Assembly: GCA_905478415.1 (NCBI GenBank)
Contig: CAJQIG010000002.1
Coordinates: 120,834-184,833 of the forward strand
Length of the DNA: 64,000 nt
Direction: 5' to 3'
DNA from: an uncultured Patescibacteria group bacterium
Lineage (GTDB): Bacteria > Patescibacteriota > Microgenomatia > UBA1400 > PJMF01
A program made the translations under genes and the position numbers. Numbering within the stretch: position 1 is the stretch's first letter; each line of letters starts with the position of its first letter. The notes beneath the pieces were generated by a model. That model did no database searches and had not been told where the DNA came from. It was given only the letters and a program-made list of their open reading frames with translations. Shown here in pieces: positions 1,976-23,020 of the stretch.

Positions 1976-4900
1976 TTAGTTTACAATCCACCAGTTGAGT
2001 TGTACTTCTGTATCCAAGGCTTCATCAAAGCCAACTATGAACTCCCCCTGTTTGTCTTCGCTTGGGTTTTCTTCTTGCTGTGACTTGACGTAGAGGACTT
2101 TGTTTTGTGTGCTGCCCACTGGAGTTACGTAGATAAGTGAGTCTTTATTGACTTTACTCGACTTGATTTTAATTTCTTTGGTACCACTTGGAATGGCGGC
2201 TTTACCAGAGGTTTTTTGACTCTCGAGTATTGGTCGGTTGTCACTGTCTAGGGTATCCAAGTTGGCTGTGCCCAGGTTTTCACTACCGACACTGAGTCCG
2301 CCTGCGAACTCAGCTTTTCCTTGAGCAGAGATGGTGGCTACAGGGGCACCGAGTTCGTCGATAATTTCAAAGCGTGATTTTCTCACTTCGCCATCTTCGT
2401 CAGAGATACCAGCCACCTGGACTTGGAGTGGGTTGCCAAAGTTGGTTGGTTTGAGGAGGTCTGCAAAGAGGGTGCCTTTAACAGTGGCGTCGTTTTCGAT
2501 AGTGAAGCTGCCGTTGATGGTGGCAGTACCGTTTTCTTCAAGGATAAGGAGGCCAGCCATGAGGGAGAGAGACCCTTGACCAGATGGTTGAATTTCAAAG
2601 ACTGAAGTACTATCGGTAGCAGTGTAGGCGATGTAGTTTTCACCGATTTCGAGGGTGTTGGCAATGGTGACTGATTGGCCGGCATGAATGTCTTTTTCGA
2701 CGAAGAGACTTTGGCCGATACCCATATTATCAGCTACGTAGGCACCGCCGTTGACTTTGAAATAGTTATTGATGAAGAGAGCGTCACCTTCAAGCGTGAC
2801 ATCAGTGGCACTCAGTGATAGATCAGCCAGTGTGAGGTTGAGGTCTGCAGAACTAGAGGCAGTGAAGCCGGCTGTTTCTACCGTTTGAACCACGTCGGCG
2901 ACTGATTTAATACTATCGGTGGTGGTCAACATTGCCAGGAGAGATGCTTTTTCGGTAACGGTCAGCGTCTTTTCGTTGAGGCCATCAATATTATTTGCAT
3001 AGAGTGTTCCCGAGACAGTAGCTGTGACAAACTCTGCTGTTTTGGCTTTAGCATCCTCAAACTGGGCGATTCCAGCTTCAAGAGCAGCTATTCTGGCTGA
3101 GGTCGTATCGATAGCAGTGGCAGTTATTGTTCCCGAGACGGTTGCTTCTTCAACTAAGAGAGAACCGAGTGATGTTTTATTTGCTGTGAGAGTATCAGTC
3201 GATACAGATCCCGAAATTGTTGCCGAGTTGGCCACAATATTTTTTGCTGTAAGTGAACCTAGGAGCGTCGTGTCTCCGTTACTAGAAATTGTTGCGACTG
3301 TAGTGTTTGAACTATCTGTAACCAGGACCGAGCCACTTTGTGAGGCGATTTTGATGACCGTGTTATTGGCAATAGGAGAGACAAGCGGTGCTACATTAGG
3401 AGTGTTTTGGTTTGCAGTAATACTTTGAATATAACTAGCGAGTGTTTGCCCATTAATGGTTATGGATTCAACAGATAGAGTCTTGATAGAAGCAGTATTC
3501 TGAACAACAAGATCCTTAGTGGTGGTGAGTCCTGCCTGGATATTTGCTACAAATGCTTTGGCGAGACTGGTGACAGAAGTGACGGTTTGTCCTGAGTTTT
3601 TGACTCTGTATCCTGTTGATGAGTCCCCAGTGAGCACTACCTGGCCATTTTCTGCAAGAGTAATAGTGGGGTCGTACCAGGCTATATTTACAAACACGAT
3701 TGCTTTTCCTACGTAGGTGCCATTGGGGAGTCTAAAACAAGGAGAGGATAAGTTGCTTCCTGGATCATCTGGCCAGGTAATGGCTTCAAGTGAGGGTACG
3801 TTGGTACAGGTTAGTTTTGATGGATCAAATGATTCTAAGACTTTACCAACAATTTGACCTGGCTGAGTTGATTTCATACCAATACCAGGTAAGACAGAAG
3901 TTGTAATGGCATCACCTCGGTTTAAAACTCCGTTTAGTGTGCTTACTTTGATTGAGGTTCTTCCATTTAGAGCCAGTGGTCTGATTTGTCCAGGGAAGTC
4001 TTCTTCTTCTAGCCAAGCTCCAAGGAGTGAGCCTGGAGTGGTTGAAATGACACCGATGACGGTATTGTCATAGGGTTTTGATGTTTTCTTAACCCAAGCA
4101 GTTTTAATGGATTCACTGTCATCAGTTGGATACTCTAGGTTTGCATATTGTTCGAATCCGGTGGGGACCATGTCTGGATTATTTGCTTCACTGTGGCCAC
4201 TCTTTACAACCTCATTTTCTTTAGTTGGGTCAACCACAACGATATCTGCGGCCTGGGTAGTAATATCACTTGTTAATATGTTTTCAGCATAGTCGTGAGA
4301 ACCTCTGGTATACGTTGTACCGTTACCCTTAACAGTAAACTCATCATGAGCATGGCCTGCATAACCATTTAGTACTTTGAGTATATCAGTTCCCCCAGTG
4401 GCACCACCCATAAGTGTAACGTAGCCAGTGTCTGCCGTATTCCATGTTTGTGAAGCAATTAGTAACCTGTTTGTTGCATCTTGTTGTATGTAAAAGTCTG
4501 AAAGGTTGTTAAAATATAACCCATCTGTTTTAATAGTCACATCTGCGTTTGTAGTTGAGTCTCCACTCAGGTTAAGTAAACTACCTAATCCAGACCAGAT
4601 TCTCGAGTATTGACTACCTGTACTACTTTCAAACACAATATCTGGAGGGTCATCTACATCAGTTGTATTTGCTCGATATTTAATTTCACCATCATGTTGG
4701 AAGATGACATTGGTACCGTAGCCACCTTGGGTGTGGAGTACAGCTGCTGGATTGGTAGTTCCAATACCTACATTACTTGCAAAGTAGCCACCTCCCGTAG
4801 TCCCATTAAGGAAGATCCTTGAAACTCCTCCTGCAGAAACATACATTCCCCAACCAGCTCCACCAGGAGTTGCTGAAACAAATGATGCATTTGAGTGTGT

Positions 4901-7900
4901 GTATCCAATACCATACATATTTCCAAGGGTAGTCGATGCAGGAAGGTAATTACTTCCAATTGTAAAGATAGGGTTAGTGTTTGTTGAGTTTGCACCAATG
5001 TTGTTATAACCACCTACTAAGAAGCCATCTTCGTGTGAGTTTCTATATATATTTCCAGTCAGGAGTACATCTCCATTAACTTCTAGCTCTGCATCTGGAG
5101 TTGTGTCACCAATGCCAACATTACCAGTAGATAATATAGTCATGACTTCTGTAAGTGCTGCAGCAACACCGCCAGTTAAGTTTGTACCGACTTCGAATGA
5201 CATTGCTCCACCCGTAGTGTTATCAGTATTTACTTCAATTCTGCCTGCATTACCAGTTTGTTCGGGTACACCATCCATATGATTAAATGTTAAGTTAGCA
5301 TTTCCATATCCGTCATTTATTGTCATGGCAACACCACCACTTCCATATCCGGATTGGATATTATCACTGGCTCTAATAAGACCGGTAACATCGAGTTTTT
5401 CACCTGGGTTAGTCGAATTAATACCAACATTGCCACCACTTAAGTAACTATCTCCACTACTAGTAATGTGAACTTCAGTACTAATATCTAGTGATGCATC
5501 TTCAACATGACCAGCTTTAATGCTTCCACCGGTAAATAAATTATATGTTTGTCCTGCTAAAGGAAGGTACATGCCATAACTAGAAAATTGAGCAACGCCA
5601 GTAACATCTTCGGCTCTTACATGGAGTCTATCTCCACTTGAATAAATTCTTGTTGCATCCGTTCCCATTGTACTACCTGCAAAGTAAGCACCATAGCTGT
5701 TGCTGAACTGAATATTACCGGAAGTTATATCTACTTTTTGAGTTGGGTTAGTAGAGCCAATACCAACATTTCCATCACTATCGATACGCATTCTCTCAAT
5801 AGGAGCATCTGCCACGGATCCGCTATTGTCTTTCGTGCTGAAGAACAGCATTCCACCCAAACTACCAGATCCAGTTTCGACTGTTCCAATTTTAGCATGT
5901 GCAAAATCGCCACTGACATGACCGACTGTACCAAGTGTAATTTGTGGACCACTTGTGTTATCCCAAGGAATAGCAATATCTAGACTTGAACTTGGAGTAA
6001 CCGTTCCAATACCCAGGTTTCCACTATCTAAGATAACTACTTCATTGGTTGTATCTCCATCTGGGTCAAAACCAAGGTAGTTGCTTGTGGTGTTATAAGA
6101 CAGAACTGCCTCATTACCATCAGTTCCGATATGAAGTGATGCTGGGCCAAGGTAGAGGTCTTGCCACCGGTAAGTGCTTGAACCGAGGTCGTAGGTATCG
6201 TCGGTGGTTGGTCCAATGTTGCCAGTTAGTTGGAGTTTAAATCTGCTTGGATTAATAGTGCCAATCCCTACGTTTCCTTGGTTATCAATCCTCATTCTCT
6301 CTGATGAAGTTGAAGAGCCGTCTGGTGTAGTCCAGAAGGTGAGTCGACCAGGCATATCATTAGTGCCAGGAGTACCATCAACTTCTACTCTAAACTCGGC
6401 TAAGTTGAGGAAGTTAGAGCCATCATAGCCTCGACCGACAAATGAGAGGGCTCCGTCTCCGTTTGCCACGATAGATGGACTAGCCACAGTGTTTCTACTT
6501 TTGTAGCCAAGGATGCTAGAAAAGCTTGAGGTATTACTAGCTTCTTGGAGCAAGATGTCAGCATCGGAGTCATTACTAATATGGAGTTTTTCTAATGGAG
6601 CTGTTGTCCCAATTCCCACATTACCACCATCTAAAATTGTCATAACCTCGGTGCTGCCATCAAAGGCATTGAAAATATCTTCAGTACTAGAGTTGCGAAC
6701 TACTAGTCTTGCAGTTGCTGGATTACTGGTGCCAATGCCCACATTACCTGCAAAGGTTCCCGATGTCGCTATAGCGGCTGGATCGATATAGTAGGCGGTA
6801 TTACTAATATCGGCAAAACGATCTGCTTGGGCGTAGCCAGCATTAGTAACAGTAAACCTTGTAGTGCCGGAAGCACTAGCGGTCAGTAGGTCTTGATTAC
6901 CTGTTTCATTTAAAATTACTAGAGCTTTTCCGATAGCAGCTCCCTCAATAGTTAATTTTCCAAGTGGTGTGGTAGATCCAATGCCTACATTACCATCTGC
7001 TCCGATGATCATGCGTTCACTGCCAGCAGTATCAAAACGAATTTTGTCTTCGTCAGCAGATTCTTCGACTTGAATGCCGGTATCAGTGTCAGCATCGAAG
7101 AGTCCGGCGGCAGCAATATTTCCTGAAATAAAGAGGTTGCTCCATCGTTTTGAGGCCGAACCAAGCGCGTAGGTGGCATCTACTGTTGGTCCTATGTCTC
7201 CAGCAATTTCAAGTTTAAAGCTAGAAGGAGTAGCAGTGCCAATTCCTACATTCTCCGTTCCCGCATCAAGCGTAAAGAAGTCAGAATTAGTGTCGCCATA
7301 CCAATTAAAATCAACATCATGACCATTTAAGTTACCGGTTACATTACCAGTAAATGCGGCTGTCTGTGAGGATGTTAGCAAACGAATGCCTCCTGCCTGC
7401 ATCTCAATTTGGTTGGTGCCAAATACAAATTTGGTGTCTATATCATCACGGGCCACAATCTGAGTTCCAAAGTAAATAGTGCCATTTACATCAAGCTTAG
7501 CGTTGGCAGTCGTTGTTCCAATTCCTACATTTGCATCAGGCATGAGGTAGAGACTACCCCCATTATGGTTTGCAATTGTGTAATCAAAACCAGTATCGAA
7601 TCCATCTTCGTCAAGACAAAATGAATTATTGCAGTCACTGGTACCAATCTTAAAAGAACCAGTGGCTAAGTTGAGTTCAGCCCCGGGATTAGATGTGCCA
7701 ATTCCGACATTACCATCGTTAGCAATAACAAATTTTGTAGCACCACTTGCTGAAGCTGTAAAAATTGCCTGGTCACCGGTTTCGTTTAGAATTGCCAAAG
7801 CTTTACCCACAGCTGCACCCTCCAGATTTAATTTTCCTAATGGAGTAGTAGTACCAACGCCAATATTTCCACTAGCATCAATTCTCATAGCTTCGGTACC

Positions 7901-10900
7901 TGCTGTGGTGAACCCCAAAATATCTGTACCACCTCTGAAGAGTCCGAGATCTAAATCATTTGTCCAGGTGTATTTTGGATCTGCAGCTGTCCCATCTGCA
8001 GAAGTTCTAAATTCGTCAGTTGCTGTAATGTCATCATCGGCCAAGATATCTCCATTTCCACCCACTCTTAAAGCCTCGGTAGACGGGGCTATACCAATCC
8101 CCACATTATCAGCAAAGTAAGCTCGACCGTCTGCATAGAGGTGTATGTTTGCACTTGCGGTAGAGGTGCCACCAAGAGCAAGATCGACAACGCTTGCATA
8201 CTCATCTTTTGGATGGAGTACGTTATCTGTGTTATCCCACCAACTGACTGATCCTAAGGTTGCAGGGTCAGTCCAAGTGTTGGCTCCACCAGCAGAAGAG
8301 GTGAGTAAGTAGCCTGAGGTGCCAGCATCACCGGCAACTCTGATGGCATCGGTGAGATTAAGTTCTCCGACAACATCAAGCTCATATCCTGGACTAGTAG
8401 AGCCGATCCCCACATTTCCAGCGGCATCAATTCTGAGTCGTTCGTTACTAGTTGCAAGTCCACCAGTAAAGAAGCGAATATCTCCACTAGCATGGTTGGA
8501 GATAAAGTCTAAACCAAGAGGTTCGAAACCGTTGTAGCCAGCAAATCCCATTCTGCCTGCAAAGTGAGTGAGTGAACCACCACCGGTAAAGCTATCAGCA
8601 TAGAGGCCAAAACCTCCACCTCTAGTAGCAGTTTCAAAGAGATATGATGAGTAGGCACCGGTGTTGTCTGTTTCATTGCTGACGAGCATAGCTGTATTGG
8701 CGTTTTGATCTTTTCTTACTACAACCTCATGTGTTGGAGTTCCAGTTCCGATTCCTATATTGCCATCACTACCTTGGACAAAAAAAGCATTCGCTTGGCC
8801 ACTAGCTTCAACTCTAAAGTCACTATCACTTCCTTGTTGGTTAAAGACGGCTGATCCATCTGCTAGGAGATGAATAGTTGCAGAGGCAGTACTGGTTCCT
8901 CCAAGTGCTAAATCAACCACACTTGCATACTCATCTGTAGGATGAAGTACATTGAGAGTGTTATCCCACCAAGTTACGCCGCTAATACTGGCAGGGTCTG
9001 TCCATGTGTTGACTCCTCCAGCAGAAGAAGTGAGGAAGTAACCAGAAGTTCCAGCATCACCGCCAGCTCGAATAGCATCAGCAAAATTGGCCTCACCATT
9101 AACATCAAGTTTGTAACCAGGAGAGCTACTGCCGATACCAACGTTGCCACTGCCATCAACCTCAAAAAGGGAGCCACTCGTATTATTAAGGACTTGGAAG
9201 GAGGTAGCCGTGGTATTGGTACCAAGCTGAAAAATAGATGCCCCAGAAGTACTCATATTATCAAAAATAAGATTTCCAGTGGCTGAAGTGATGTAGGAGT
9301 GAGAGCCAGTGTGGTACAGATCCAAATCGCCTCCAGCACCAATCTGGATTCGATCATTATCATTTCTGAGTAACAGATCATCTCCGAGAGAAACATTTCC
9401 TAGGTTTGTGTAGAGTGCATAGTTATTTGTGGCTCCTACGTTTTGACTTCCAACTAAAATTCCGTAGTTGTTAGTAATAGTGCCACCACCAGAATTAATA
9501 TTTGCATCAATGTATGCTGCAACCGCAGTTGTAATAGTGCCAGTGCTTTCATTATCGACGCGGCCATGAAGCGCATAGGCAGAAGTTATTGTTGAAGCTC
9601 CCGTTAATCTTACTTGGTTAAGCATACCTCTGACGACAGCCTGTGTACCAGAACTTGCACTGACATTTGTATTAATTTGAAGCGCGTTATACGTAGCAGC
9701 TCCAGCCACAGATCGAGTTGCATAGATTGAGTTAGCATATTGGGTAGCAGTGGCTTCTGAACTGGTTGAGGTGAGTCTGAGGCCATTCGTAAAGGTATCG
9801 TTTGTATTCGCTGTGATTGAGAGTCGAAGCGGAGAGCTTTGTTCGATTCTTGCATTAGCGTCATTGAACAAAATACCTGCGTTGCGCATGTTGAGGTCGC
9901 CATCAGCTTCTATGTTGGAAAGAATAGTACTACTACTATTTTGCCATTCTTGCAGGTTGGCTGTTTGACTGCCTGAGTTGGCTTTAATAATTTGGCCAAT
10001 ACGGCTATCTGACCCAGTGTTGAGTTGTAGTTTTGCTCCGGGACTAGATGTTCCAATTCCAACATTACCAGCAAGATATGCTTCACCATTAGATTGGAAG
10101 TGAACATTTGCACTGGCAGTTGAGTTACCTCCGAGTGCTAGGTCTACAACATCTGTGTACGGAGGCTTTGGATGGAAAACCCCAGCTGTGAGGTCCCAGT
10201 AGCCAGCTTCAACGATACTATAAGGTTCTGTCCAGTTATTAAGGCCACCCCCAGAAGATGTTAAAATGTAGTCGACGACACCAGCATCACCATTCAGGCG
10301 AATGGCATCGGTGAAGTTGGCTTCGCCGTTGACATCAAGTTTATAGCTGGGGGTGTTAGTACCTATTCCAACATTGCCATTAAAGACACCAGAAGTAACA
10401 ATTGCGGCTGGGTCTATATAGTAGCTGCTGTTACTAATATCAGTGAATCTATCGGCATAGGCGTAGCCGTTGTTGGCAATTCTGAAGCGAGTAACTCCAC
10501 TAGCACTAGCGGCTAGTATGTCTTGATCTCCTGTTTCATTGAGAATGCTCAAGGCTTTACCAACAACAGCTCCCTCAACATTGAGGAGGCCAACTGGGGT
10601 ACTTGTTCCGATTCCAACATTACCATTTTGATCCCAAGTGGTAAGAACAGTGGTATAGTTTTTAACTTGTAGAATGGGGCGATTTGCAATAGTTGAGCTA
10701 GTATTTTGACCGGTAAGTGTCAGGAGCGGATCTGTACCACTGTCTGTGGTAGCAATAGCCTGGATTTGACCAGCCACTGTCGAACCAGAGCCTTGAAATC
10801 TAATCTGAGGACTAAACAAGCTATCTGCAGAAGTCGCATTTCTGAAACTTAAGTATGCACCAGCATCATCACTGACTGACAGTTTTAAGAGTTCTTCTGC

Positions 10901-13645
10901 AGCTAGGGCAGCGGAAGTTTTGTATAGTTTTAAATACGAATCTGGAGTTGAAGTTCCAATGCCTACATTTGTTCCATTGTCGAAAAGCAAGGAGTTGGTC
11001 AGAGTATCGGCATCTGACCATTTAGAAATATAGTTAGTGGTACCAGATCCATCTGTGAGCGTGGTACCCCAAACTCTGGCATCGATTTCATCGGTAGTGA
11101 GTTGGTTGCTTCCATTGAGGATAACAACAGTATTATCAGTGCCTGTTCCGAGTCCTGAGAACGTGACGGTGCTCGTTGCTGCTAGAGTACTAATACTACT
11201 CAGATTGCCACTATTGAAATTCCAGTCCCCAGTGAGGTTTCCATCGTAGATAGTATTTGTACCCAAATCAAGAGTGCCTGCAAAATAAGCATTTCCACTG
11301 CTTTGCAACAGGATGTTTGCACTAGCCGTTGAATTTCCACCAACAGCTAAGTCTACAACGCCAGCAAACTCATTTTTTGGATGATAGACATTGAGGGTGT
11401 TCTCCCAAAGACCAGTGATAGAGCTGAAATCTGTGACACAGTTTGTTTCTCCGTCACCAGTACAAAATTTAGTTGCTTCTATAGTACCGTCAGAAACGGC
11501 AGTTCCAAAAGTTGAAAGACCAGAAGAAAGGTAGATATCTCCAACTACATCGAGTGGAGCTTGAGGGGAGGTTGAGCCAATACCTAGGTTTCCAGAGACA
11601 TAGACCTGATCATCAAGGGTGAGATTCCCGCTAGAACTGTAGATAGAGTTGCCATTGATGTCAAGCAGACTGTTTAAGATATCAATATCTGGAGTGCCAT
11701 CACCACCGTTTATAAGTAGGCGGTTAATATCGGTGCTGCTATCTTGAGTACGAAGGACGAGAGAACCACTGGTTCCACCACTGTTGGAGATATAGGAGCC
11801 ACCATTTCGATAGAAGGTGAGCTGGTTGCCGTTGAGCTGACTATAGAGTCCAGCACTAGAAGAGTAGGTAGTAATGGTGTTACTACCACCACCGTCACTT
11901 CCGAGTATGACATTACCTCCATCAGCAACATGAAGTTTTGCGCTGGGGTTATTAAGACCAGCGCCAATGTTTCCATTTTCATCGATCACACTTAAGGCAG
12001 TGCCAGAATTATTTTGCCATTCCTGAATGTTGGCTGTCCCACTGGGGCCACCTTTTGTTATCAAGGCAGTGCCTCCGGCATAAGTAGCGCTCAGTGTTGC
12101 TCCAGGAGCAGAAATATAGCCAGTTACATCGAGGTCAGACTGAACTTGCACTTGTCCAGTTCCGTCTGGAGACAGTGTGATATCTCCATTAGTCCCACTA
12201 CTTGTTTGTAGGGTTAGGGTTTCGGCCTCTATGGCGAAATTACCCGAAACAGCTTTGAGAAGAGGCGAAACTTCCCCCAAGATAATGTCACCGGTATTGT
12301 TCATAGTCACCACCGTGTTTTTTGTGGCTGCGCCGGTGGCGTCAATAGGATAGCCTTGCAGTGTTTCAGAGTTTAAAGCGTAGGGAACTGTCTTGATACT
12401 TTGTCGAGGAGTGAGTGTTTCAGTTGCGATCTCCACCTCGAGCCACACGTTTGAGTTCTCGGTAAAAACATCTTGGCTGATTTCACTACCACAAGTACTT
12501 CCGAGATCAGTATTAAAGATACCATCTTGATCTGGAGTGACACTACAAGTGCCAGAGCTCCAGAGTTGGCTGCCTGCAGTGTTAGCATCATAGAGGCGAA
12601 AGGCCATATCTGTAGCGGTAGTAATAGGGTTTTGACTGGTATCAGTTAAACGCCCCTGGAATTGAAGCACTCTATTTGGTCGAGTAGGGCTTGTAGGGTA
12701 AGCCAGGGGTGCTTTAGCATTTTTAATGAACTGGGTGTACCCAAAAATGCCAAAGGCAGCCACAAACAGTAAGATTATCACCAGGTTCAGGTAGGGGAGA
12801 AAGGTTTTTTGTTGTTGATCAGGTAGTAATTTACCCTGCAGGGTCCTCATCCCAGCTTTAATTCGACTTCTCATGTTCTGATTTGATTGGGCATTATCTC
12901 GAGTATTTATGTGTTCGTTTTGAGAATGAGATGATGTCACGGGAACTGAGGGTGCGTTTGAGGTTGGCACAGCGGTAAAGTGTAAGCGAGGCTCTTGTAC
13001 TGGAACAGTCTTACTTGAGGAAGAAGCAATGATCTTCTCAAGATCATTCCCAACTTCTTCAAGTTCTTTGATTGATGGAATGACTCCCTCTGTCATTAAC
13101 CAGAGGCCAAACTGAGTAATGCTGATGACTTTTCTTCTGATGGAAGAGGTCTTTAACCCCTTTTTTGCCTGTAGGACAACGAAAAGTGATAGTTCGTGTT
13201 TGTTTATGGCTCTTTGGAGCTCACTTTTCTGGGAAAATTGAAAAAATTGACTGATATCACTGCGATAATTTTTTATGGTTGATGCTGAGCAGTTGTCTGC
13301 TTTGAGTGCTAATAGGTATTCGTGAAGAAAAACTGTTGTCTGGTGGGGTGGATATTTTTGGACAAACTCAATCAAAGCTGTGCGTATCATTTGATCTTTT
13401 GTCTGGTGGTCCTCTGAGGTGTCCAAAAAGCGGATGAGTTCAGAAACAGGCCACTCACTGAGTGATTTTTTTTGTGAAAGATATTCGGCAAACAAAGCCG
13501 TGGCTTCACTGCGGTTGTGTTCACTGAGCAAAGCACTTTCCAAAAATGTGGAGAGTGAAGTCAGAATGCTAGGAATGTAACGGTTTTGGGCAGTCATTAT
13601 TTTATTTTTGCAAGTGTTTTTGACATGTGGCTCTACCAGATTCAT
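1976..13645 (-). CDS. Giant (3889 aa) membrane-anchored, fibre-like surface protein. Architecture: N-terminal cytoplasmic integrase-SAM-like domain, one TM segment, then a long extracellular region of tail-fibre-like beta-helical repeats.
   Basis: Single uninterrupted ORF. The N-terminal ~290 aa are hydrophilic and contain a Phage_integrase_N/SAM-like pattern (FLHEYLLALKADNCSASTIKNYRSDISQFF ... SSIRRKVISITQFGLWLMTEG). TM helix FLPYLNLVIILLFVAAFGIFGY follows. Dozens of repeats of the form GNVGIGT(S/T)(S/T)P..KLDV.G occur, with reiterated KAL.ILNETG(D/N)Q.....ASASG modules. Confidence 0.8.
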   Translation of the reverse strand: MNLVEPHVKNTCKNKIMTAQNRYIPSILTSLSTFLESALLSEHNRSEATALFAEYLSQKKSLSEWPVSELIRFLDTSEDHQTKDQMIRTALIEFVQKYPPHQTTVFLHEYLLALKADNCSASTIKNYRSDISQFFQFSQKSELQRAINKHELSLFVVLQAKKGLKTSSIRRKVISITQFGLWLMTEGVIPSIKELEEVGNDLEKIIASSSSKTVPVQEPRLHFTAVPTSNAPSVPVTSSHSQNEHINTRDNAQSNQNMRSRIKAGMRTLQGKLLPDQQQKTFLPYLNLVIILLFVAAFGIFGYTQFIKNAKAPLAYPTSPTRPNRVLQFQGRLTDTSQNPITTATDMAFRLYDANTAGSQLWSSGTCSVTPDQDGIFNTDLGSTCGSEISQDVFTENSNVWLEVEIATETLTPRQSIKTVPYALNSETLQGYPIDATGAATKNTVVTMNNTGDIILGEVSPLLKAVSGNFAIEAETLTLQTSSGTNGDITLSPDGTGQVQVQSDLDVTGYISAPGATLSATYAGGTALITKGGPSGTANIQEWQNNSGTALSVIDENGNIGAGLNNPSAKLHVADGGNVILGSDGGGSNTITTYSSSAGLYSQLNGNQLTFYRNGGSYISNSGGTSGSLVLRTQDSSTDINRLLINGGDGTPDIDILNSLLDINGNSIYSSSGNLTLDDQVYVSGNLGIGSTSPQAPLDVVGDIYLSSGLSTFGTAVSDGTIEATKFCTGDGETNCVTDFSSITGLWENTLNVYHPKNEFAGVVDLAVGGNSTASANILLQSSGNAYFAGTLDLGTNTIYDGNLTGDWNFNSGNLSSISTLAATSTVTFSGLGTGTDNTVVILNGSNQLTTDEIDARVWGTTLTDGSGTTNYISKWSDADTLTNSLLFDNGTNVGIGTSTPDSYLKLYKTSAALAAEELLKLSVSDDAGAYLSFRNATSADSLFSPQIRFQGSGSTVAGQIQAIATTDSGTDPLLTLTGQNTSSTIANRPILQVKNYTTVLTTWDQNGNVGIGTSTPVGLLNVEGAVVGKALSILNETGDQDILAASASGVTRFRIANNGYAYADRFTDISNSSYYIDPAAIVTSGVFNGNVGIGTNTPSYKLDVNGEANFTDAIRLNGDAGVVDYILTSSGGGLNNWTEPYSIVEAGYWDLTAGVFHPKPPYTDVVDLALGGNSTASANVHFQSNGEAYLAGNVGIGTSSPGAKLQLNTGSDSRIGQIIKANSGSQTANLQEWQNSSSTILSNIEADGDLNMRNAGILFNDANARIEQSSPLRLSITANTNDTFTNGLRLTSTSSEATATQYANSIYATRSVAGAATYNALQINTNVSASSGTQAVVRGMLNQVRLTGASTITSAYALHGRVDNESTGTITTAVAAYIDANINSGGGTITNNYGILVGSQNVGATNNYALYTNLGNVSLGDDLLLRNDNDRIQIGAGGDLDLYHTGSHSYITSATGNLIFDNMSTSGASIFQLGTNTTATSFQVLNNTSGSLFEVDGSGNVGIGSSSPGYKLDVNGEANFADAIRAGGDAGTSGYFLTSSAGGVNTWTDPASISGVTWWDNTLNVLHPTDEYASVVDLALGGTSTASATIHLLADGSAVFNQQGSDSDFRVEASGQANAFFVQGSDGNIGIGTGTPTHEVVVRKDQNANTAMLVSNETDNTGAYSSYLFETATRGGGFGLYADSFTGGGSLTHFAGRMGFAGYNGFEPLGLDFISNHASGDIRFFTGGLATSNERLRIDAAGNVGIGSTSPGYELDVVGELNLTDAIRVAGDAGTSGYLLTSSAGGANTWTDPATLGSVSWWDNTDNVLHPKDEYASVVDLALGGTSTASANIHLYADGRAYFADNVGIGIAPSTEALRVGGNGDILADDDITATDEFRTSADGTAADPKYTWTNDLDLGLFRGGTDILGFTTAGTEAMRIDASGNIGVGTTTPLGKLNLEGAAVGKALAILNETGDQAIFTASASGATKFVIANDGNVGIGTSNPGAELNLATGSFKIGTSDCNNSFCLDEDGFDTGFDYTIANHNGGSLYLMPDANVGIGTTTANAKLDVNGTIYFGTQIVARDDIDTKFVFGTNQIEMQAGGIRLLTSSQTAAFTGNVTGNLNGHDVDFNWYGDTNSDFFTLDAGTENVGIGTATPSSFKLEIAGDIGPTVDATYALGSASKRWSNLFISGNIAAAGLFDADTDTGIQVEESADEDKIRFDTAGSERMIIGADGNVGIGSTTPLGKLTIEGAAIGKALVILNETGNQDLLTASASGTTRFTVTNAGYAQADRFADISNTAYYIDPAAIATSGTFAGNVGIGTSNPATARLVVRNSSTEDIFNAFDGSTEVMTILDGGNVGIGTTAPLEKLHISNDSDADILLQEASNTSSFSSILGYKSRNTVASPSIVANGDGALSFVGRGYDGSNFLNLAEFRVEVDGTPGTNDMPGRLTFWTTPDGSSTSSERMRIDNQGNVGIGTINPSRFKLQLTGNIGPTTDDTYDLGSSTYRWQDLYLGPASLHIGTDGNEAVLSYNTTSNYLGFDPDGDTTNEVVILDSGNLGIGTVTPSSSLDIAIPWDNTSGPQITLGTVGHVSGDFAHAKIGTVETGSGSLGGMLFFSTKDNSGSVADAPIERMRIDSDGNVGIGSTNPTQKVDITSGNIQFSNSYGAYFAGSTMGTDATRIYSSGDRLHVRAEDVTGVAQFSSYGMYLPLAGQTYNLFTGGSIKAGHVEDASLDISTEVHITSSGDSYLSGGNVGINSTNPGEKLDVTGLIRASDNIQSGYGSGGVAMTINDGYGNANLTFNHMDGVPEQTGNAGRIEVNTDNTTGGAMSFEVGTNLTGGVAAALTEVMTILSTGNVGIGDTTPDAELEVNGDVLLTGNIYRNSHEDGFLVGGYNNIGANSTNTNPIFTIGSNYLPASTTLGNMYGIGYTHSNASFVSATPGGAGWGMYVSAGGVSRIFLNGTTGGGYFASNVGIGTTNPAAVLHTQGGYGTNVIFQHDGEIKYRANTTDVDDPPDIVFESSTGSQYSRIWSGLGSLLNLSGDSTTNADVTIKTDGLYFNNLSDFYIQQDATNRLLIASQTWNTADTGYVTLMGGATGGTDILKVLNGYAGHAHDEFTVKGNGTTYTRGSHDYAENILTSDITTQAADIVVVDPTKENEVVKSGHSEANNPDMVPTGFEQYANLEYPTDDSESIKTAWVKKTSKPYDNTVIGVISTTPGSLLGAWLEEEDFPGQIRPLALNGRTSIKVSTLNGVLNRGDAITTSVLPGIGMKSTQPGQIVGKVLESFDPSKLTCTNVPSLEAITWPDDPGSNLSSPCFRLPNGTYVGKAIVFVNIAWYDPTITLAENGQVVLTGDSSTGYRVKNSGQTVTSVTSLAKAFVANIQAGLTTTKDLVVQNTASIKTLSVESITINGQTLASYIQSITANQNTPNVAPLVSPIANNTVIKIASQSGSVLVTDSSNTTVATISSNGDTTLLGSLTAKNIVANSATISGSVSTDTLTANKTSLGSLLVEEATVSGTITATAIDTTSARIAALEAGIAQFEDAKAKTAEFVTATVSGTLYANNIDGLNEKTLTVTEKASLLAMLTTTDSIKSVADVVQTVETAGFTASSSADLNLTLADLSLSATDVTLEGDALFINNYFKVNGGAYVADNMGIGQSLFVEKDIHAGQSVTIANTLEIGENYIAYTATDSTSVFEIQPSGQGSLSLMAGLLILEENGTATINGSFTIENDATVKGTLFADLLKPTNFGNPLQVQVAGISDEDGEVRKSRFEIIDELGAPVATISAQGKAEFAGGLSVGSENLGTANLDTLDSDNRPILESQKTSGKAAIPSGTKEIKIKSSKVNKDSLIYVTPVGSTQNKVLYVKSQQEENPSEDKQGEFIVGFDEALDTEVQLNWWIVN
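7215..7860. repeat. Cassette within giant gene 1 that is ~88-90% identical at the DNA level, in inverted orientation, to 35268-35725 in giant gene 2. Giant gene 1 has a ~180-nt insertion relative to giant gene 2.
   Basis: Direct comparison of the reverse complement of 35268-35420 with 7700-7860, and of 35420-35720 with 7215-7520. Examples: ...agcaataacaaattttgtagcaccacttgctgaagctgtaaaaa... and ...ccacaat(c/t)tgag(t/a)(t/a)ccaaagtaaatagt(g/a)ccatttacatcaagct... Confidence 0.7.
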
Positions 13646-14205
13646 TAGACCTGTTAGACGTGTCTGAAATCAGTGTATCTTACCCGAGAGTCCAGGGTCA
13701 ATGGTCTGGTAGTTGGAGACAAAGGGGGGTGGGCAGAAAAAAGATCTCCCAGGCATACGATGATATATATAAAAAAGTATTTCACACTGTTTCATGAGTA
13801 TCATAAGACATCAAATAGGGGGTATTTATTCGTATTTATACGAAATGAGTCGCATTTATGTGCTTTTGTTCACACTATTTAATTCTTGTGGAACTGTTTA
13901 AATGAGTGGTAGTATGTGAAGGTAAAACTAACAAAAAAGATGGGGGAATCTTAGTACCAGGCTAAACGAGTGTAAAAATTACAATTATTTTACTTATGTG
14001 TGGAAAAAGTGAGTTTCGGTGCCGCTCAAGTGTTGAAAACTTTTTAAAAACAATTGCTTTGAGATAGTAATACTATTGACAATAGTGAGAATAAAGATGC
14101 AACAATAGTAATTGTGTTATATTCGGGTTCTATATTTAGTCGAGTAGATATAAGAATATAATGCGAAAATAGCTCTCAAAGCTGTGATGGAATCTTATAA
14201 TATAT

Positions 14206-14955
14206 ATGAAAAAAAATAGTGTTACGCTCGCCTTGTTTTTATATCCAACCAAGGAGAGTCAAGATCGATTCTTAAAGCAGTCTAGCGTGTATGCGTTAGT
14301 TCCTTCGCTGACGAGGGGTGGCAAGCGTTCTTTGTTATACCATTTAGAGCAAGAAGCAGTTCTTTTTTCCGAGCGGGTGTCCGGTGACATCCAGTACTCG
14401 TTAACAGAGAAGGGGCAACGCCAGTTAATTGAGCTATTTCCGGCTTTAGATTCCAAGTGGGATACCTACGCTGGAACCTGGCAGTGCATCGTCTTTCAAC
14501 AAGCTCCTAAGAGTGATCCCCAATTCAGGTACCTACGTTCTCAGTTGGTGCGAGAGCATGCCATTGGACTTAGCAGAGGAGTATACTGTTCTCCTGATTC
14601 TTTCTCGACCAACTTGATTCAAATGTGTCAAAAGCTCTATCAAGACTGTGTGAGTATTTTCTCAGTGGCTTCTTGGGACTTTGGCTTTGAGAGAAGCTCT
14701 ATTACACGAAACTTTTCACTTGCAGATCTTGCAACTTCTTACTCAAGTGTTAGCACTGAAGTTGAGTCTTTGCTAGCTTCTGTTGATCAAAAGAGAAGAC
14801 CGAATGATCAGGAAAAAAAGCAGTTCTTTTCGGTATACAATCGATTTCGGGATATTTTGAGTGAAGATGTTGGGATTACTACTTACTACTATCCTCAGGT
14901 ACCATCTGGACTGCAATTACTTGCTCAGTTGCAAGAGCTCGCAGACACATTTTAG
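14206..14955 (+). CDS. PaaX-family-like transcriptional regulator
   Basis: N-terminal winged-helix-like region (RGGKRSLLYHLEQEAVLFSERVSGDIQYSLTEKGQRQL) and the PaaX-type core WDTYAGTWQCIVFQQAPKSDPQFRYLRSQLVREHAIGLSRGVYCSP (compare PaaX WDGxWxLVxFDIPE..R..R..LR..L...GFG.L..SVWVSP). Confidence 0.55.
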   Translation: MKKNSVTLALFLYPTKESQDRFLKQSSVYALVPSLTRGGKRSLLYHLEQEAVLFSERVSGDIQYSLTEKGQRQLIELFPALDSKWDTYAGTWQCIVFQQAPKSDPQFRYLRSQLVREHAIGLSRGVYCSPDSFSTNLIQMCQKLYQDCVSIFSVASWDFGFERSSITRNFSLADLATSYSSVSTEVESLLASVDQKRRPNDQEKKQFFSVYNRFRDILSEDVGITTYYYPQVPSGLQLLAQLQELADTF

Positions 14956-15718
14956 AGCAATTTCTAACAATACATTTTCCTTTATATCCTCTAGACTACT
15001 AAAACACCACCACTTTTCGGGTGCTTATTCATGAATTATTGCCAGAGGCACTAAGATGCTCTTTTATTAGTAAATAACAAATAATTATATTTGCATGTAT
15101 ATTCGCCACAGGCTTTGCAGTAATAAATCGTTTATTATGCGTGAATAATAGATTCGTGTTTTTATAGTAATAATTTTATAATCTTAGTGCGATAAATATT
15201 ATTACCTCCTATTTATGATGCACTCTATTTTTTTAGCATACTAAATTACAATATACAGTTAGTTTCTTGAGTAAAAATCATATAATAGTTAAAATTATAT
15301 GATGATGAGTAACCCTAAAAGCAAATAACTATTGGTTGCAGTTATATTGATATAAGTGGTTTCAACAATTTCTTATAAGAAAAAAAAGCTAAAACACAGC
15401 TTGTTTTACTACCTGTTACTTACTATTGGTTTGAAGATGGCTGCAAGCAGCTTTCAGACCCCCAACCTGGTGTTAGCAGTCTAGTGAAAGTGAGTGCTAA
15501 GGTATTTTTTGAGGAAGTAAGAGCCCCTATATCAACAACTTTGTTCTTTTTGTTTGGTATTTATTCGAGCTTGGGGTTTTCTATTTTTTATCTGTGATGT
15601 CATATCTAACCTCTGGGCCGATAATCATTATTTTTGTTTCTTTTGCAGATAAGTGATGATTTGTATGGTCGTAGTTGGATTTTACTATTTTGTGTCTGCT
15701 TGCCTATAGAACAGAAGC

Positions 15719-17767
15719 TTAAAATGACTGTTGTGTGAGTTCTTCGAATGAGGTTAGGGAAGTATCAAATACAAGCGGTTTTTCACCGATTGTAACCTCT
15801 TCAAAGCCCATGTTCCCTGATTCTCGATACCAAATATATTGGCTCTTAGTAATAGTTATGTAGTACAGACCAGGATCACAGTAGGCTCCATATTTGCCTT
15901 TTTTATTAGTTGTGACCAATGCTACCAACTCTGTCGTTTGGGGATCGCTTACTTTGATAACGACATTTTCGATAGGTACTCCATCACGAGTGGTAATGGT
16001 TCCACGGATGGTAGCTCGTTTGTTGCTAATGACATACTTTTTTGCAAAAACTATCAAGTAAAAGGCGATAACTGCATAGTTTAATCTAGTTGGGCTAATC
16101 AAGGTAAAAATCACTGAGAGAATAAACATGGGAATGAGCAAATTCTTCATTCTAAGGCGAGCTGCAGTCAACCTCAGCCAACTTTTGAGGTTCTTTTTTC
16201 TGACTTTTTCATCTTTGGGATCAATTGGAATCAAGAACAATTGATGCGTCTTATCGGTACTTACCCGAAACGTTTCTCCTTTGTAGAAATCATTTATACT
16301 CAAGTAATTCGGCTTTTCTTTGGTAGTTGGGAAGGTGTAATCCTGGTGGGTAACAGTAATCTTGTAGACGCCATGGGGGAGTTGAATACCCTGATAGATA
16401 CCATTCTCATCAGTCACCACTGTTTCGAAGATAGTTTCGCTTGAGTCAACGCTCTCAATTGTAAGGAGGGCGAAGGGAACTGGCTCGTTTGTGTCACTAT
16501 TAAACACAATTCCTTGTGGTTCCTTGGCTGGAAGGAGTCCAATTGCTTGTAGAAACCTGAAGAAAAGTTCAAGACTCAGCTGTCCGCCGTAGCTGAAAAG
16601 TAGTGAGAGCAAACTGAGAGTAGGCAACAGCGCGGTTACAATTAATGCTCCAATTGGTGAGATAGCTCTGATCGATTGTGTGATAGCTTCGATAATTTGT
16701 GGGGGAATACTGTTCGTAACCTCCTCTGGAGTAGCCTCGAGGGTTTCTTGGATGATCTCATGGATGATTTCTCGCGGTGGCGTAATTGAAATAATGATAA
16801 CAGGGCTGGGACTCGGTGAGGGAGTTGGTACTACTGAAGGACTTGGCTCTGGGGTAAATCCAGGAGTAGGGCTTGGAGATGGAGTGGGCGTTGGGCTAGG
16901 TGTCGGGGTAGGTGTCGGTGCTGGTGGAGGAATGATAATGATGATAGGGTCAATGACAATTTTTAGATCACTAATGACAGAAATATTTCCTGAAGAGTCA
17001 GAAATAACAAAGTCGAGGGTAATGACTACGTTCCGGGGAAGAATACCAACTTGAAAGTCCCACGAACCATCAGAACCTATGGTAAAAGTATGAGTCTGGG
17101 TTGGATCATCGGGAATAGTGATGGTGAGTTGTACCGATGCATTACTTTCGCCAGTACCCACCAGGAGTGGTTCATTGTTTGCTAGGTGAATTGGATCAGA
17201 TGGAACGGTGGCGGCATCACCAGTGTTGATGTCAACTGTTTCATCGCCAATAGTTGTGATCTCGAAGTAGGGAGCAGTAGTATCAATAGTAAAATCCCAG
17301 ACAACTGACTGAGAAAAGTTTCCAGCCTCATCATAGGCATATATCTGCCAAGTGTGGTCGCCGTCGGAGAAGCCAGATTTGGGGGTAAGGAAGAAGTGTG
17401 AAAGGCCACTATCATAGAGTAGTGTGTATTGACTGGTTGTAGTTGCCCCAGTAGGAATGGTATCGAAGAGAAGGACTCCATCACGCCAAAATTGATAGTG
17501 AGAGACATCGACATTATCTGTGGATGCCTGCCACTCAAATGTAGGAGTGGGGGTGGTGAGGGTTATTTCATCCTCAGGAGAAATAAGAATTGGTGTACTT
17601 GGAGGGATGATGTCTGGGACAGTTGCGGTGACCAATTGTGGTCTATTTTTAGGATTTGTGGTTAAGTCTTCACCAGGAAGCAGTCCGCTTTCTTGAGCTC
17701 CTGCACCCAGAGGTGAGAATACAAGTAAGAGGGAAACCAAAAATGCTAGAAGTCGTTTGTAGCGCAC
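15719..17767 (-). CDS. Secreted/membrane surface protein with an Ig/FN3-like module, a Pro/Thr-rich linker, TM helices and C-terminal carboxypeptidase-regulatory-like beta-sandwich domains
   Basis: Signal peptide MRYKRLLAFLVSLLLVFSPLGAGAQE. PT linker PPPAPTPTPTPSPTPTPSPSPTP. Hydrophobic helices in the middle. CarboxypepD_reg-like segments (GTITTRDGVPIENVVIKVSD...KKGKYG; NGIYQGIQLPHGVYKITVTHQDY). Confidence 0.55.
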   Translation of the reverse strand: MRYKRLLAFLVSLLLVFSPLGAGAQESGLLPGEDLTTNPKNRPQLVTATVPDIIPPSTPILISPEDEITLTTPTPTFEWQASTDNVDVSHYQFWRDGVLLFDTIPTGATTTSQYTLLYDSGLSHFFLTPKSGFSDGDHTWQIYAYDEAGNFSQSVVWDFTIDTTAPYFEITTIGDETVDINTGDAATVPSDPIHLANNEPLLVGTGESNASVQLTITIPDDPTQTHTFTIGSDGSWDFQVGILPRNVVITLDFVISDSSGNISVISDLKIVIDPIIIIIPPPAPTPTPTPSPTPTPSPSPTPGFTPEPSPSVVPTPSPSPSPVIIISITPPREIIHEIIQETLEATPEEVTNSIPPQIIEAITQSIRAISPIGALIVTALLPTLSLLSLLFSYGGQLSLELFFRFLQAIGLLPAKEPQGIVFNSDTNEPVPFALLTIESVDSSETIFETVVTDENGIYQGIQLPHGVYKITVTHQDYTFPTTKEKPNYLSINDFYKGETFRVSTDKTHQLFLIPIDPKDEKVRKKNLKSWLRLTAARLRMKNLLIPMFILSVIFTLISPTRLNYAVIAFYLIVFAKKYVISNKRATIRGTITTRDGVPIENVVIKVSDPQTTELVALVTTNKKGKYGAYCDPGLYYITITKSQYIWYRESGNMGFEEVTIGEKPLVFDTSLTSFEELTQQSF

Positions 17768-17810
17768 ATGTACTTATATTTCTGATTTTGTATTACACTT
17801 GGCAACAACA

Positions 17811-18878
17811 TTAGTCTTCGTGTTGTTCCAGTTTTTTACTTTGTAAACTCTGGATCTGTTCCTCTAAATTCTTGATCTGTTCCTCTTTGTTTCCATTTTT
17901 GTGTACTATGTGTCTTCGAATTGAAATTATCATTGCAACTAAGACTAACAATATGATAATTGCGGTCAGAACTAACTTGACTGGAAAGAGCCAAAATGAA
18001 GTGTTAGAAATTGCAATATTTCCTTGTTCACCATAGCTCATTATCAGCTTAGCTCTATAAAAGCCATGTCCCCAGACTCGATCCCATTTCCCAGAGAAAG
18101 CTCGGTTGTAGAGTGGGAAGATATTCTTACTTTCGATTTCAATAGTGTCAATTTTTTGGTTGAAGATGTTATAAATTTCAACAGACATTTGAGGGGTGAT
18201 ATGAATATCTGACTGGTTATCAACAAAGAATGAGAAATCTACTGGTCCAATTTCGGTTAGCTGAGGAAAGCTGAAGTCTCTGATAAAGGCTTCTTCGTTA
18301 ATAAGCCCATCAACAATTACATAGAAGAGAGAACCGACCTTTTGACTGATTGCAGAGGCAGATTGACCATCATCGAGAGCAATTCCTTGTGATGGTTCGT
18401 GTGTGACCATAGCATAGTGACCTCCTGGCAAAGCATTTTCTGGAACTTCGATCAGTACAGAAGTAGCAGCTGTTGTTTGTGGTTGGATAGTTTGCTGAGA
18501 GGGGGCAATCACAAGCCAGTTGGCTAAACTCCAGCGAGTGGGGGTTTCTTCCATCAAAGGAATTGGTGTTTCCCCATCAAGATCAAGCATAAAGTCTTGA
18601 GCGAGTGTTCTAATAGTGATGGGTTTTGTAGAGTTGTTTCTGATTCTTAGTTGCACTTGCTCTTTAGCTCCAGGAGCAAGCTTGATGATTTCCTGATCTC
18701 CAACTCTAGGGGGAATAGCTGTCAAGGTAATAGTGTCATCACTTTGAGAAAAATCTTGGGCATGGATGGTGTGAGTAAAGACGGTTGCTCCGAGAACAAG
18801 GGTAGCTACAGTGAAAGCTAAAGTCTTAAGTGAGAGCTGTGGGCGGGCAGTGTTCATGTAGTTCCTTATGGTCCTCAA
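17811..18878 (-). CDS. Surface protein with signal peptide and a C-terminal TM anchor plus coiled-coil tail (paralog of 20398-21381). DUF916-like architecture.
   Basis: N-terminal signal sequence, a ~280-aa extracellular domain, C-terminal TM LVLTAIIILLVLVAMIISI and tail NKEEQIKNLEEQIQSLQSK. Shares motifs with 20398-21381 (..VSVTP.. / IKPGSK..TITIEN..). Confidence 0.5.
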   Translation of the reverse strand: MRTIRNYMNTARPQLSLKTLAFTVATLVLGATVFTHTIHAQDFSQSDDTITLTAIPPRVGDQEIIKLAPGAKEQVQLRIRNNSTKPITIRTLAQDFMLDLDGETPIPLMEETPTRWSLANWLVIAPSQQTIQPQTTAATSVLIEVPENALPGGHYAMVTHEPSQGIALDDGQSASAISQKVGSLFYVIVDGLINEEAFIRDFSFPQLTEIGPVDFSFFVDNQSDIHITPQMSVEIYNIFNQKIDTIEIESKNIFPLYNRAFSGKWDRVWGHGFYRAKLIMSYGEQGNIAISNTSFWLFPVKLVLTAIIILLVLVAMIISIRRHIVHKNGNKEEQIKNLEEQIQSLQSKKLEQHED

Positions 18879-20323: not shown

Positions 20324-20397
20324 TTTTGCGCAATACTAAACTCTCAAAAGAGTATTTTAGTGCTTAGATTTAAGTTTAGCTGGTATTTCCCCTGACT

Positions 20398-21381
20398 TCA
20401 AGAGTCAGAGTGTTGTTTTTTTCTTTTTACTATGAAAGTAATTCCTGCAGCACTCAATAAGAGAGTTATGAGTGTTGGAAGTATGGGGAACGCAAAAAAA
20501 GTAAATGTGTCGTAGGCAATGATGTCTTGGCTTTCGCTGGTATAGGGTTGTGTTACTGTCACTTCTACGGTGTAGAGTCCGAGTAAAAAGGAAGGGTCAA
20601 ACGCAAAGGGAACTGCCTCTGGCTCGATATCTTTTTGAAAGTCGGTTCTCATAGCTCTGAGTTCTCGAGCACTAAAGCCAAGGATAGTGTCAGGGAAAAT
20701 GTTGAATGCAGCAACCTGAGAGTCAAACATATTCTTGACGACTACAGTTCCAGCTGCATTTGTAGCAGCAAAGTTATTATTTTTAATAGAGGGTTTGATA
20801 GTAATTTTTTTAAAGCTATCTACGAACTTTGGAACAGCGATACTATTGATATTTATTAATTGAGAGATTTGTTCATCTTTCGAAATAAGCACAATCATAT
20901 TGCTTCCGATGGCCCCAACAAGCTGTGAAGTTGAGCCTGGATTAGTGCTTTGCGTGGGGATTGATTCAAACATAACTGTCAGCGGGTATTCCTTCTCTTC
21001 GGCATCTTCAGGAACGGTGAACAAAAGTGCCAGCTGAGCCCGTTTTCCACCAGGAATGGTGATTTCTTGTTGAGAAATAGTTTCTATGTCGAGGTAGGGG
21101 AATGACGACTCTCCTACTAGAATGGGTCGTCCTGTAGTGCCATCGGCTGTGAAATCAAAGATGAGTGGTCTGAGGGTACTATTTAAAGCTCCTTGGTTTT
21201 CGATAGTGATGGTGTGACGAACTTTCGATCCTGGTTTGATTCGTATATACGAAGTGTCTGGGGTGACCGAGACAGTAAAGGCCTGTGTTTGTGCTGCAAC
21301 GGGAGTAGGGGTAATCACTCGACACAACAAAGTAATGGTGAGGATACTGTAGGAAAGCAGCTGGGTTATTTTTGTGTTCAT
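20398..21381 (-). CDS. Surface protein with signal peptide and C-terminal TM anchor (paralog of 17811-18878)
   Basis: Signal peptide, extracellular domain, C-terminal TM LPTLITLLLSAAGITFIV then KRKKQHSDS. Confidence 0.5.
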   Translation of the reverse strand: MNTKITQLLSYSILTITLLCRVITPTPVAAQTQAFTVSVTPDTSYIRIKPGSKVRHTITIENQGALNSTLRPLIFDFTADGTTGRPILVGESSFPYLDIETISQQEITIPGGKRAQLALLFTVPEDAEEKEYPLTVMFESIPTQSTNPGSTSQLVGAIGSNMIVLISKDEQISQLININSIAVPKFVDSFKKITIKPSIKNNNFAATNAAGTVVVKNMFDSQVAAFNIFPDTILGFSARELRAMRTDFQKDIEPEAVPFAFDPSFLLGLYTVEVTVTQPYTSESQDIIAYDTFTFFAFPILPTLITLLLSAAGITFIVKRKKQHSDS

Positions 21382-21388
21382 AATGCTA

Positions 21389-22836: not shown

Positions 22837-22976
22837 GGAAGTGGACTCGAGACTCTAGATGCAGTTCTGATCTAAAAAGACTGGTGTGTTATAATCCTGG
22901 AGTATGCAAAAAGAAGCCCTTTTTCTTCCACTCCTTCTTGAGTTACACTAAAGAAAGTGGGATTTAGAGTGCACAG

Positions 22977-23000: not shown

Positions 23001-23020
23001 TACTATTACAAAGGAGCCAC

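Follow-up and report, generated by a model that had tools for sequence, protein, structure and literature searches.

We analyzed a window of 64,000 nucleotides (nt), the whole stretch of DNA presented above, from contig CAJQIG010000002.1 of an uncultured Patescibacteria bacterium, one of the candidate phyla radiation (CPR) bacteria. Two giant genes in this window, here called A and B, encode modular, fibre-like proteins (Table 1). The genes have in common a cassette of coding DNA, and the two copies of this cassette are inverted relative to each other and lie in the same codon phase. Here we consider the origin of this inverted repeat.

The modules of both proteins open with the motif G-N-V/I-G-I/V-G-T-x-x-P-x-x-K-L-x-V, and a catalogue of these motifs counts 22 in A and 10 in B. 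Protein A has a predicted cytoplasmic part at its N-terminus, followed by one transmembrane (TM) helix (about amino acids (aa) 285–306) and then the 22 GNVGIGT-type modules. Pfam scans were run on 40 proteins, namely 39 of the 43 window open reading frames (ORFs) of at least 150 aa plus the N-terminal 285 aa of A alone. No S74 domain was detected in A by these scans, and A is of the non-S74 type. Gene B has the S74 catalytic motif SDxxxK, in the form SDIRLK (S1244 to K1249), and its cassette stops 36 aa before the S74 cleavage serine. As whole proteins, A and B align at only 23–27% identity.

Table 1. Fibre genes of the window and the parts of their shared cassette (dS, synonymous divergence per site; pS, proportion of synonymous sites that differ; A2 and B2, the module 1 copies of the cassette)
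Feature	Position	Strand	Partner in gene B	Remarks and basis
Gene A	1976-13645	-		3889 aa; ORF list, translation
Gene B	32087-36730	+		1547 aa; N-terminal TM/signal anchor, 10 GNVGIGT-type modules, C-terminal Peptidase_S74
Peptidase_S74 intramolecular chaperone/autoprotease domain of B	35816-35971	+		PF13884, E 1e-12, aa 1244-1295
Cassette copy in A (aa 1925-2140)	7227-7871	-		blastn, codon alignment
A module 1	7712-7867	-
A-only 60-aa Cys module	7532-7711	-		begins SDCNNSFCLDEDG; the '180-nt indel'; junction alignment, blastp
A module 2	7253-7531	-
Cassette copy in B (aa 1052-1207)	35242-35706	+		blastn, codon alignment
B module 1	35246-35401	+		followed directly by module 2
B module 2	35402-35680	+
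B1, older module 1 copy inside B	34673-34828	+		78.5% nt identity to both A2 and B2; dS 0.8-1.0
Tract I	7466-7873		35240-35467	dS 0.37
Centre (135 nt), the central patch of A module 2	7331-7465	-	35468-35602	pS 0.79; synonymous sites saturated versus B
Tract III	7226-7330		35603-35707	dS 0.58

A blastn comparison of gene A with gene B gave two segments, both of which were also returned by a repeat search of the window. Segment 1 (A 7694-7871, B 35242-35419) covers 178 nt at 90.4% identity (E 1e-66), and segment 2 (A 7227-7538, B 35395-35706) covers 312 nt at 79.8% (E 6e-77). The segments are in-frame and adjacent. Joined, they amount to 465 alignable nt with an overall identity of 83.7%, and identity of 90% is limited to the first 178 nt. 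The longest exact runs measure 46 and 38 nt in segment 1 and 17 nt in segment 2. At both ends of the cassette, a junction alignment shows identity falling from ∼90% to ∼20–30% within roughly 30 nt, indicative of sharp borders. A sequence-only reading of this DNA had described an inverted repeat common to the two giant genes, with ∼88–90% identity over >600 bp. The repeat is real, and lies close to where it had been placed, but it is shorter and more diverged than was stated. That reading had also judged the identity of the cassette to be far higher than that of the rest of the two genes. This holds, as no other A/B match in DNA exceeds 70% identity or 113 nt in length, the older module 1 copy in B (34669-34842, 80%) excepted.

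The cassette starts and ends at GNVGIGT-type motifs. It consists, in order, of module 1 (52 aa), a 60-aa module with two cysteines that is found in A only, and module 2 (93 aa). What had been reported as a ∼180-nt indel thus corresponds to exactly one module of 60 codons. This module is bounded by two GNVGIGT-coding repeats, and the single motif of B aligns to either. A homologue comes after a module 1 in the S74 fibre of another organism (P0143), so the A-only module is a genuine member of the family's repertoire. There are five copies of module 1, three in A (A1, A2 and A3, at aa 1009, 1927 and 2219) and two in B (B1 and B2, at aa 863 and 1054). These copies cluster as ((A2,B2),B1), with A1 and A3 outside. 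Module 2 has no further close copy in A or B, the next best match being ∼30% identical at the aa level.

Most differences between the A and B copies are at the third position of a codon (13 of 17 in segment 1, 42 of 63 in segment 2), and all base changes occur. The ratio of nonsynonymous to synonymous divergence (dN/dS) is ∼0.1 in tracts I and III and overall, which indicates that the cassette is under purifying rather than diversifying selection. Synonymous divergence is heterogeneous along the cassette (Fisher p = 1e-5; Table 1). To express this in another way, we counted identical codons among those that specify the same amino acid in both copies, and compared the counts with those expected from the codon usage of the genes. 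In tract I, 55 of 72 such codons are identical versus 26.4 expected, and in tract III 22 of 30 are identical versus 12.2 expected. For both flanks pooled, the count is 77 of 102, with about 39 expected (chance level 37–41%). In the centre, only 10 of 32 are identical, versus 12.3 expected. Other pairs of module 1 copies have 32–49% identical codons. With twice as many identical codons as chance would give, the flanks must share DNA ancestry well beyond the effect of protein conservation; the centre does not.

These counts bear on the simplest account of the repeat, in which there was no exchange at all, the modules were inherited vertically, and strong purifying selection on the protein alone kept the DNA similar. 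Module 1 is indeed well conserved, being 75–81% identical in aa sequence to copies in the related loci L001 and L002, for which the whole proteins are only ∼40% identical. In the centre of module 2, moreover, the DNA similarity is fully accounted for by protein conservation. Yet the flanks, with synonymous codon identity of 73–80%, exceed twofold both chance and comparable module pairs. The sharp borders and the nesting of A2 within the B clade of module 1 copies also speak against this account, as does the comparison with orthologues described below, in which A and B group against both orthologues in the flanks. Extreme local codon bias might be invoked as a rescue, but the orthologues do not display it. 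Vertical inheritance without exchange is therefore improbable.

An exhaustive search of representative proteins identified two orthologues with a module 2, P0153 of the A type and P0141 of the B type; the corresponding DNA loci are L013 and L016. Module 2 of the A-type (P0153) and B-type (L001, P0141) orthologues is at most 53–56% identical in aa sequence, compared with 82% between A and B. We scored three-taxon sites among A2, B2 and the A-type orthologue. In the flanks, 50 sites join A2 with B2 and 6 join A2 with the orthologue. In the centre, the corresponding numbers are 10 and 16, and the contrast between flanks and centre is significant (p = 3.6e-6). Thus in the centre, the copy in A resembles the A-type orthologue of L013 no less than it resembles B. 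Four-taxon nucleotide sites gave a similar picture, with 25 supporting A2 plus B2 and 5 supporting the split expected from orthology. All five of the latter lie in the centre, at alignment columns 38–53; by hand calculation, the chance of this is about 0.003. In the orthologous parts of A compared with L013 and L015, synonymous sites are saturated (codon identity 0.33–0.46), from which it follows that the conversions postdate the split from these relatives.

Together, these data suggest that the repeat is probably the diverged trace of past ectopic gene conversion, that is, non-reciprocal homologous exchange, between paralogous fibre genes, and that it is a passive relic rather than a switch. 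The mechanism we infer is of the RecA type. DNA coding for the GNVGIGT..P..KL.V motif would provide short homology at module borders, and module 2 would be ancestral to both gene types. In the lineage of the present genome, after the split from its relatives, conversion would have homogenized two stretches of A and B. One would run from module 1 through the initial third of module 2, and the second would take in the final third of that module. The 135 nt in the centre may have escaped conversion or been overwritten afterwards, and so kept or regained gene-specific sequence. The 60-codon module of A may have looped out during conversion, or may later have been deleted from B between its flanking GNVGIGT repeats. 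Afterwards, the two copies would have evolved independently under strong purifying selection.

Several points weigh against this interpretation. Uneven synonymous divergence could in principle reflect local codon or mRNA constraint rather than age, although such a reading is weakened by the agreement of the phylogenetic signal with exchange. The closest genomes outside the same population are all at saturated synonymous divergence, and the timing and direction of exchange rest on two paralogues plus distant orthologues. In P0153, module 2 is placed elsewhere along the gene and is not strictly positionally orthologous. Finally, the population evidence described below consists of consensus contigs obtained by exact-protein look-up, which is blind to minority variants and chimeric alleles.

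Recombination among modules is seen elsewhere in the fibre family. Module content varies widely among A-type genes, whose products measure 2966, 3889 and 5466 aa. The 5466-aa A-type orthologue of locus L015 (GCA_020632265.1, JACKFW010000001.1) contains intragenic repeats at 12446-23066 that are 88–99% identical in DNA; one of 1064 nt, at 98.9%, is the longest. These repeats indicate very recent segmental duplication or homogenization. The variation in module content and the L015 repeats argue that recombination among modules is general in the family and in places recent. This same orthologue has an internal S74 domain followed by an A-type C-terminal region. In L002 (BOKR01000001.1, 9737-21375), three fibre ORFs (1383, 512 and 1982 aa) stand in tandem at the B locus; at their 5' ends, the 1383-aa and 1982-aa ORFs are 66.5% identical in DNA over 1444 nt, which points to tandem duplication. 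We also considered L013 (A-type) and L016 (B-type) as a second case of recent A/B exchange. This candidate was rejected, as the region of module 2 and module 1 is only 67.6% identical in DNA. The two loci come from one run series, with GC contents of 0.415 and 0.448, and may not belong to one genome. A scan of genome contigs returned two distant loci only.

We then asked what sampled populations say about exchange at present. Proteins identical to A are encoded on 7 contigs and proteins identical to B on 10; these contigs stem from NCBI and from several ENA samples. Seven loci that we fetched (L003–L009), from six ENA samples, are collinear with the window and 99.96–100% identical to it, including both cassette copies. 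The 90% cluster of A has a single member, and that of B has one full-length variant plus fragments. This sole full-length variant, P0010, carries two substitutions, both outside the cassette. Neither chimeric A/B alleles nor the alternative orientation was seen in the sampled consensus assemblies and 90% clusters. The youngest tract has ∼10% nt divergence (dS 0.37), hundreds of times the population diversity; since independent assemblies differ by at most 0.04%, the last exchange must be old.

These results address the principal proposal of the sequence-only reading, namely that ongoing cassette exchange reshuffles the fibre and thereby produces antigenic or host-range variation. At least one gene-conversion event evidently took place, and more than one tract was probably involved. 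The longest exact runs, of 46 and 38 nt, would suffice for RecA-type recombination, for which minimal processing segments in model bacteria are about 25–30 bp, and the relative represented by L015 has undergone what looks like very recent intragenic homogenization. Past exchange thus stands, backed by the sharp borders, the synonymous heterogeneity and the incongruent phylogeny, the last being mosaicism along the cassette as revealed by orthologous loci, albeit from distant relatives. That the exchange is ongoing does not, given the contrast between tract and population divergence. A system for varying the fibre likewise finds no echo in the identical alleles on 7 and 10 contigs or in the low dN/dS of a conserved cassette. 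Nor is there a silent archive: within the window we found only two high-identity copies as potential donor cassettes, both inside complete, full-length ORFs of the expressed type. Active variation is accordingly very unlikely.

Two apparent variants of B were set aside. The seemingly truncated or rearranged allele P0014 (858 aa) is a product of assembly, in which a low-coverage contig folds back on itself at its end: the last 108 nt of L008 (12505-12612; ERZ1764456 NODE_1344) are the reverse complement of window positions 34587-34694, which creates the false P0014. P0011 and P0012, two ORFs on one 2.7-kb contig, might have represented a deletion between module 1 copies, but P0012 starts upstream of copy 2. 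We read the pair, from the protein sequences, as a putative frameshift.

The repeat might instead act as an inversion switch, with recombination between the copies flipping the intervening segment and exchanging the distal halves of the fibres in frame. The geometry is suitable, in that the inverted copies lie in one codon phase and a crossover would join the N-terminus of A to the S74 end of B, and the N-terminus of B to the end of A. All assemblies, however, have one orientation, with A and B intact between their usual flanks, and the only apparent rearrangement is the contig-end artefact of L008. GC skew stays above zero throughout 12–64 kb, continues unbroken across 13.6–32.1 kb and has no step at gene B. 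Gene order is also kept in relatives despite saturated dS: pilins, A, a 249-aa ORF, Big_13, five ORFs and LeuRS around the A-type orthologues in L013/L014 and L015, and LeuRS, ATP synthase, B and ComEA around the B-type orthologues in three Patescibacteria contigs (L001, L002 and L016). The segment bears LeuRS, the F-type ATP synthase operon (the 'ATPase operon' of the earlier description) and other housekeeping genes. A and B are chromosomal genes, not parts of a prophage. In the 39 scanned ORFs, we found no catalytic domain of an invertase or of a tyrosine or serine recombinase; the sole recombinase-related match in the window is the SAM-like core-binding domain at the N-terminus of A. The proposed inversion of this segment is thus unsupported, and an inversion switch is exceedingly unlikely. 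A weaker version, in which the repeat is a rare RecA-dependent crossover site that inverts the housekeeping segment and exchanges distal fibre halves in frame, we regard as highly unlikely. If it were true, the long shaft of A would be joined to the S74-processed tip of B, and the reverse, giving an episymbiotic CPR cell alternative attachment fibres at low frequency.

Diversity-generating retroelements (DGRs) are common in CPR genomes, and two nearly identical stretches of ∼180 nt, of which one lies towards the C-terminus of a surface protein, could be taken for a template and variable repeat pair. In a DGR, adenine-specific changes would be expected. Here, every base is affected, in either direction and without specificity for adenine, and most substitutions are synonymous. 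Both copies are coding and lie inside large ORFs, and none of the scanned ORFs gave a reverse transcriptase domain. On the basis of the mismatch spectrum and this negative result we rejected a DGR, for which virtually no probability remains.

To place A and B among known proteins, we searched several collections. PHROG tail-fibre families match both. The cassette matches the Bdellovibrio protein Bd2133 (8OND, E 1e-7), with weaker matches to 8OL4/8ONF (E 0.0098); we disregard a further match, to 8ON4 (E 0.081), as too weak. Representatives of this very large family number 19,258 at E ≤0.001 and 162 at ≤1e-30, and many run to several thousand residues. A narrower homologue search with the cassette returned 8 matches, all in proteins of at most 420 aa; it missed the known giant orthologues and permits no inference of rarity. 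A scan of JGI metagenomes for the cassette found nothing. A scan of IMG/VR gave only distant S74 matches and no close viral relative of the cassette, and hence there is no sign of recent phage origin. A literature search on S74 or giant fibres in CPR bacteria found no paper.

Bd2133 is one of the mosaic adhesive trimers (MATs), surface fibres of Bdellovibrio bacteriovorus with S74 and non-S74 members that recognize prey (Caulton et al. 2024, PMC10769870). The definition of MATs includes a domain of ∼130 aa, conserved and rich in beta structure, right after the signal peptide (PMC10769870); A and B are likened to them by shaft and S74 only. Like MATs, A and B appear to be cellular, non-phage fibres with trimeric beta-helix segments and the loop motif G-N-V/L-G-I/L-G-T-x-x-P-x-x-x-L. 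In both cases, one paralogue has a terminal S74 domain with SDxxxK (here B) and another lacks S74 (here A), and the paralogues have some modules in common and differ in others. Unlike MATs, A and B belong to a Patescibacteria host and are much larger (1547 and 3889 aa, with relatives of up to 7831 aa). In addition, where MATs have a simple signal peptide, A is anchored by a TM helix and bears an integrase SAM-like domain on the cytoplasmic side. We thus regard A and B as putative MAT-like or tail-fibre-like trimeric adhesins, their trimeric state and surface role being predicted.

Three other kinds of system invite comparison. Tail-fibre genes of P2, Mu, P1 and T-even phages are mosaics formed by recombination at conserved module borders. 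As in those genes, the blocks seen here end at conserved motifs, and patches of high identity lie in otherwise diverged genes; here, however, the partners are two chromosomal paralogues of one cell, set in conserved housekeeping synteny, rather than phage genomes. In Neisseria pilE/pilS, Borrelia vlsE and Mycoplasma genitalium MgPa, gene conversion generates antigenic variation. Those systems resemble A and B in the non-reciprocal transfer of coding segments between homologous loci for surface structures. They differ in that the window has neither a silent archive nor a single expression site, the copies are 10–20% diverged, no population heterogeneity was seen, and selection is purifying rather than diversifying. 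The Gin/G segment of Mu, Cin/C of P1 and Rci of R64 recombine at short, specific crossover sites through a dedicated recombinase encoded next to them, and the two orientations exist side by side. They too have inverted repeats in fibre or pilus-tip genes, and recombination at the repeat studied here would likewise exchange C-terminal parts in frame. In contrast, no recombinase was found at this locus, ∼27 kb of mostly housekeeping DNA separates the repeats, and one orientation was seen. The mosaic history of these adhesin genes is thus an ordinary event of a known kind, while its setting, giant MAT-like fibres of Patescibacteria, is apparently little described.

Gene A has some unusual features beyond the cassette. 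Its first 285 aa (12790-13645, minus strand) contain a match to the phage-integrase N-terminal SAM-like core-binding domain (PF02899, E 6.6e-11), without the catalytic domain. The A-type orthologues P0153 (L013 6259-15159) and P0136 (L015 10001-26401) bear two SAM-like domains. A search of PDB sequences with the N-terminal region of A gave no match. The fusion of a DNA-binding-type domain to a surface fibre is odd. Gene A adjoins three type IV pilin-like genes (N_methyl/T2SSG) at 75-1858 on the plus strand. On its other side, between A and LeuRS, lies a block (15719-22836, minus strand) that comprises a 682-aa protein with Big_13 and CarboxypepD_reg domains and then five ORFs of 355, 482, 327, 251 and 230 aa with no Pfam match. 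This block is kept in L015 and L013, and may be a surface or assembly operon tied to fibre A.

Gene B sits between the F-type ATP synthase operon and comEA/comEC (36773-39859, plus strand). ComEC appears to be split at 37975-39859 (plus strand), where an ORF with the Competence domain (319 aa) overlaps an ORF with the metallo-beta-lactamase domain (325 aa), and the identical split is called in every population contig. Between the cassette and the cleavage serine of B, aa 1208-1243 (35708-35815, plus strand; KLDVVGSARFSAVGSGSYSADLNLTADGTLTTS) are nearly identical in the L001 orthologue. The two proteins are only about 43% identical overall, and this pre-cleavage strand is far more conserved than nearby modules. 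An AF2 monomer model of module 2 plus S74 gave a predicted local distance difference test score (pLDDT) above 90 for the S74 domain and ∼52 for module 2. In the Bdellovibrio protein Bd3182, the trimeric beta-helix that immediately precedes the cleavage serine forms the mature tip; by analogy, fibre B would have its module 2 in this tip. The conserved positions of the fibre genes across distant Patescibacteria suggest a link to pili or to DNA uptake, or simply a stable locus.

These results dispose of the claim, tempting but unsupported, that CPR bacteria possess a new variation system. In its place, they portray giant fibre genes that evolve by exchange, duplication and deletion of modules, via homologous recombination at a conserved motif. 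Such recombination acts between paralogues and, in a relative, inside one gene. They also place CPR fibres beside the prey-recognition fibres of Bdellovibrio. Given the likeness to MATs and the conserved loci, next to pilins in one case and between ATP synthase and comEA/comEC in the other, A and B are reasonable candidates for host-attachment structures of episymbiotic Patescibacteria. The centre of module 2 has remained gene-specific and, if fibre B is organized like Bd3182, would lie in its mature tip. This patch is a sensible place in which to seek binding specificity.

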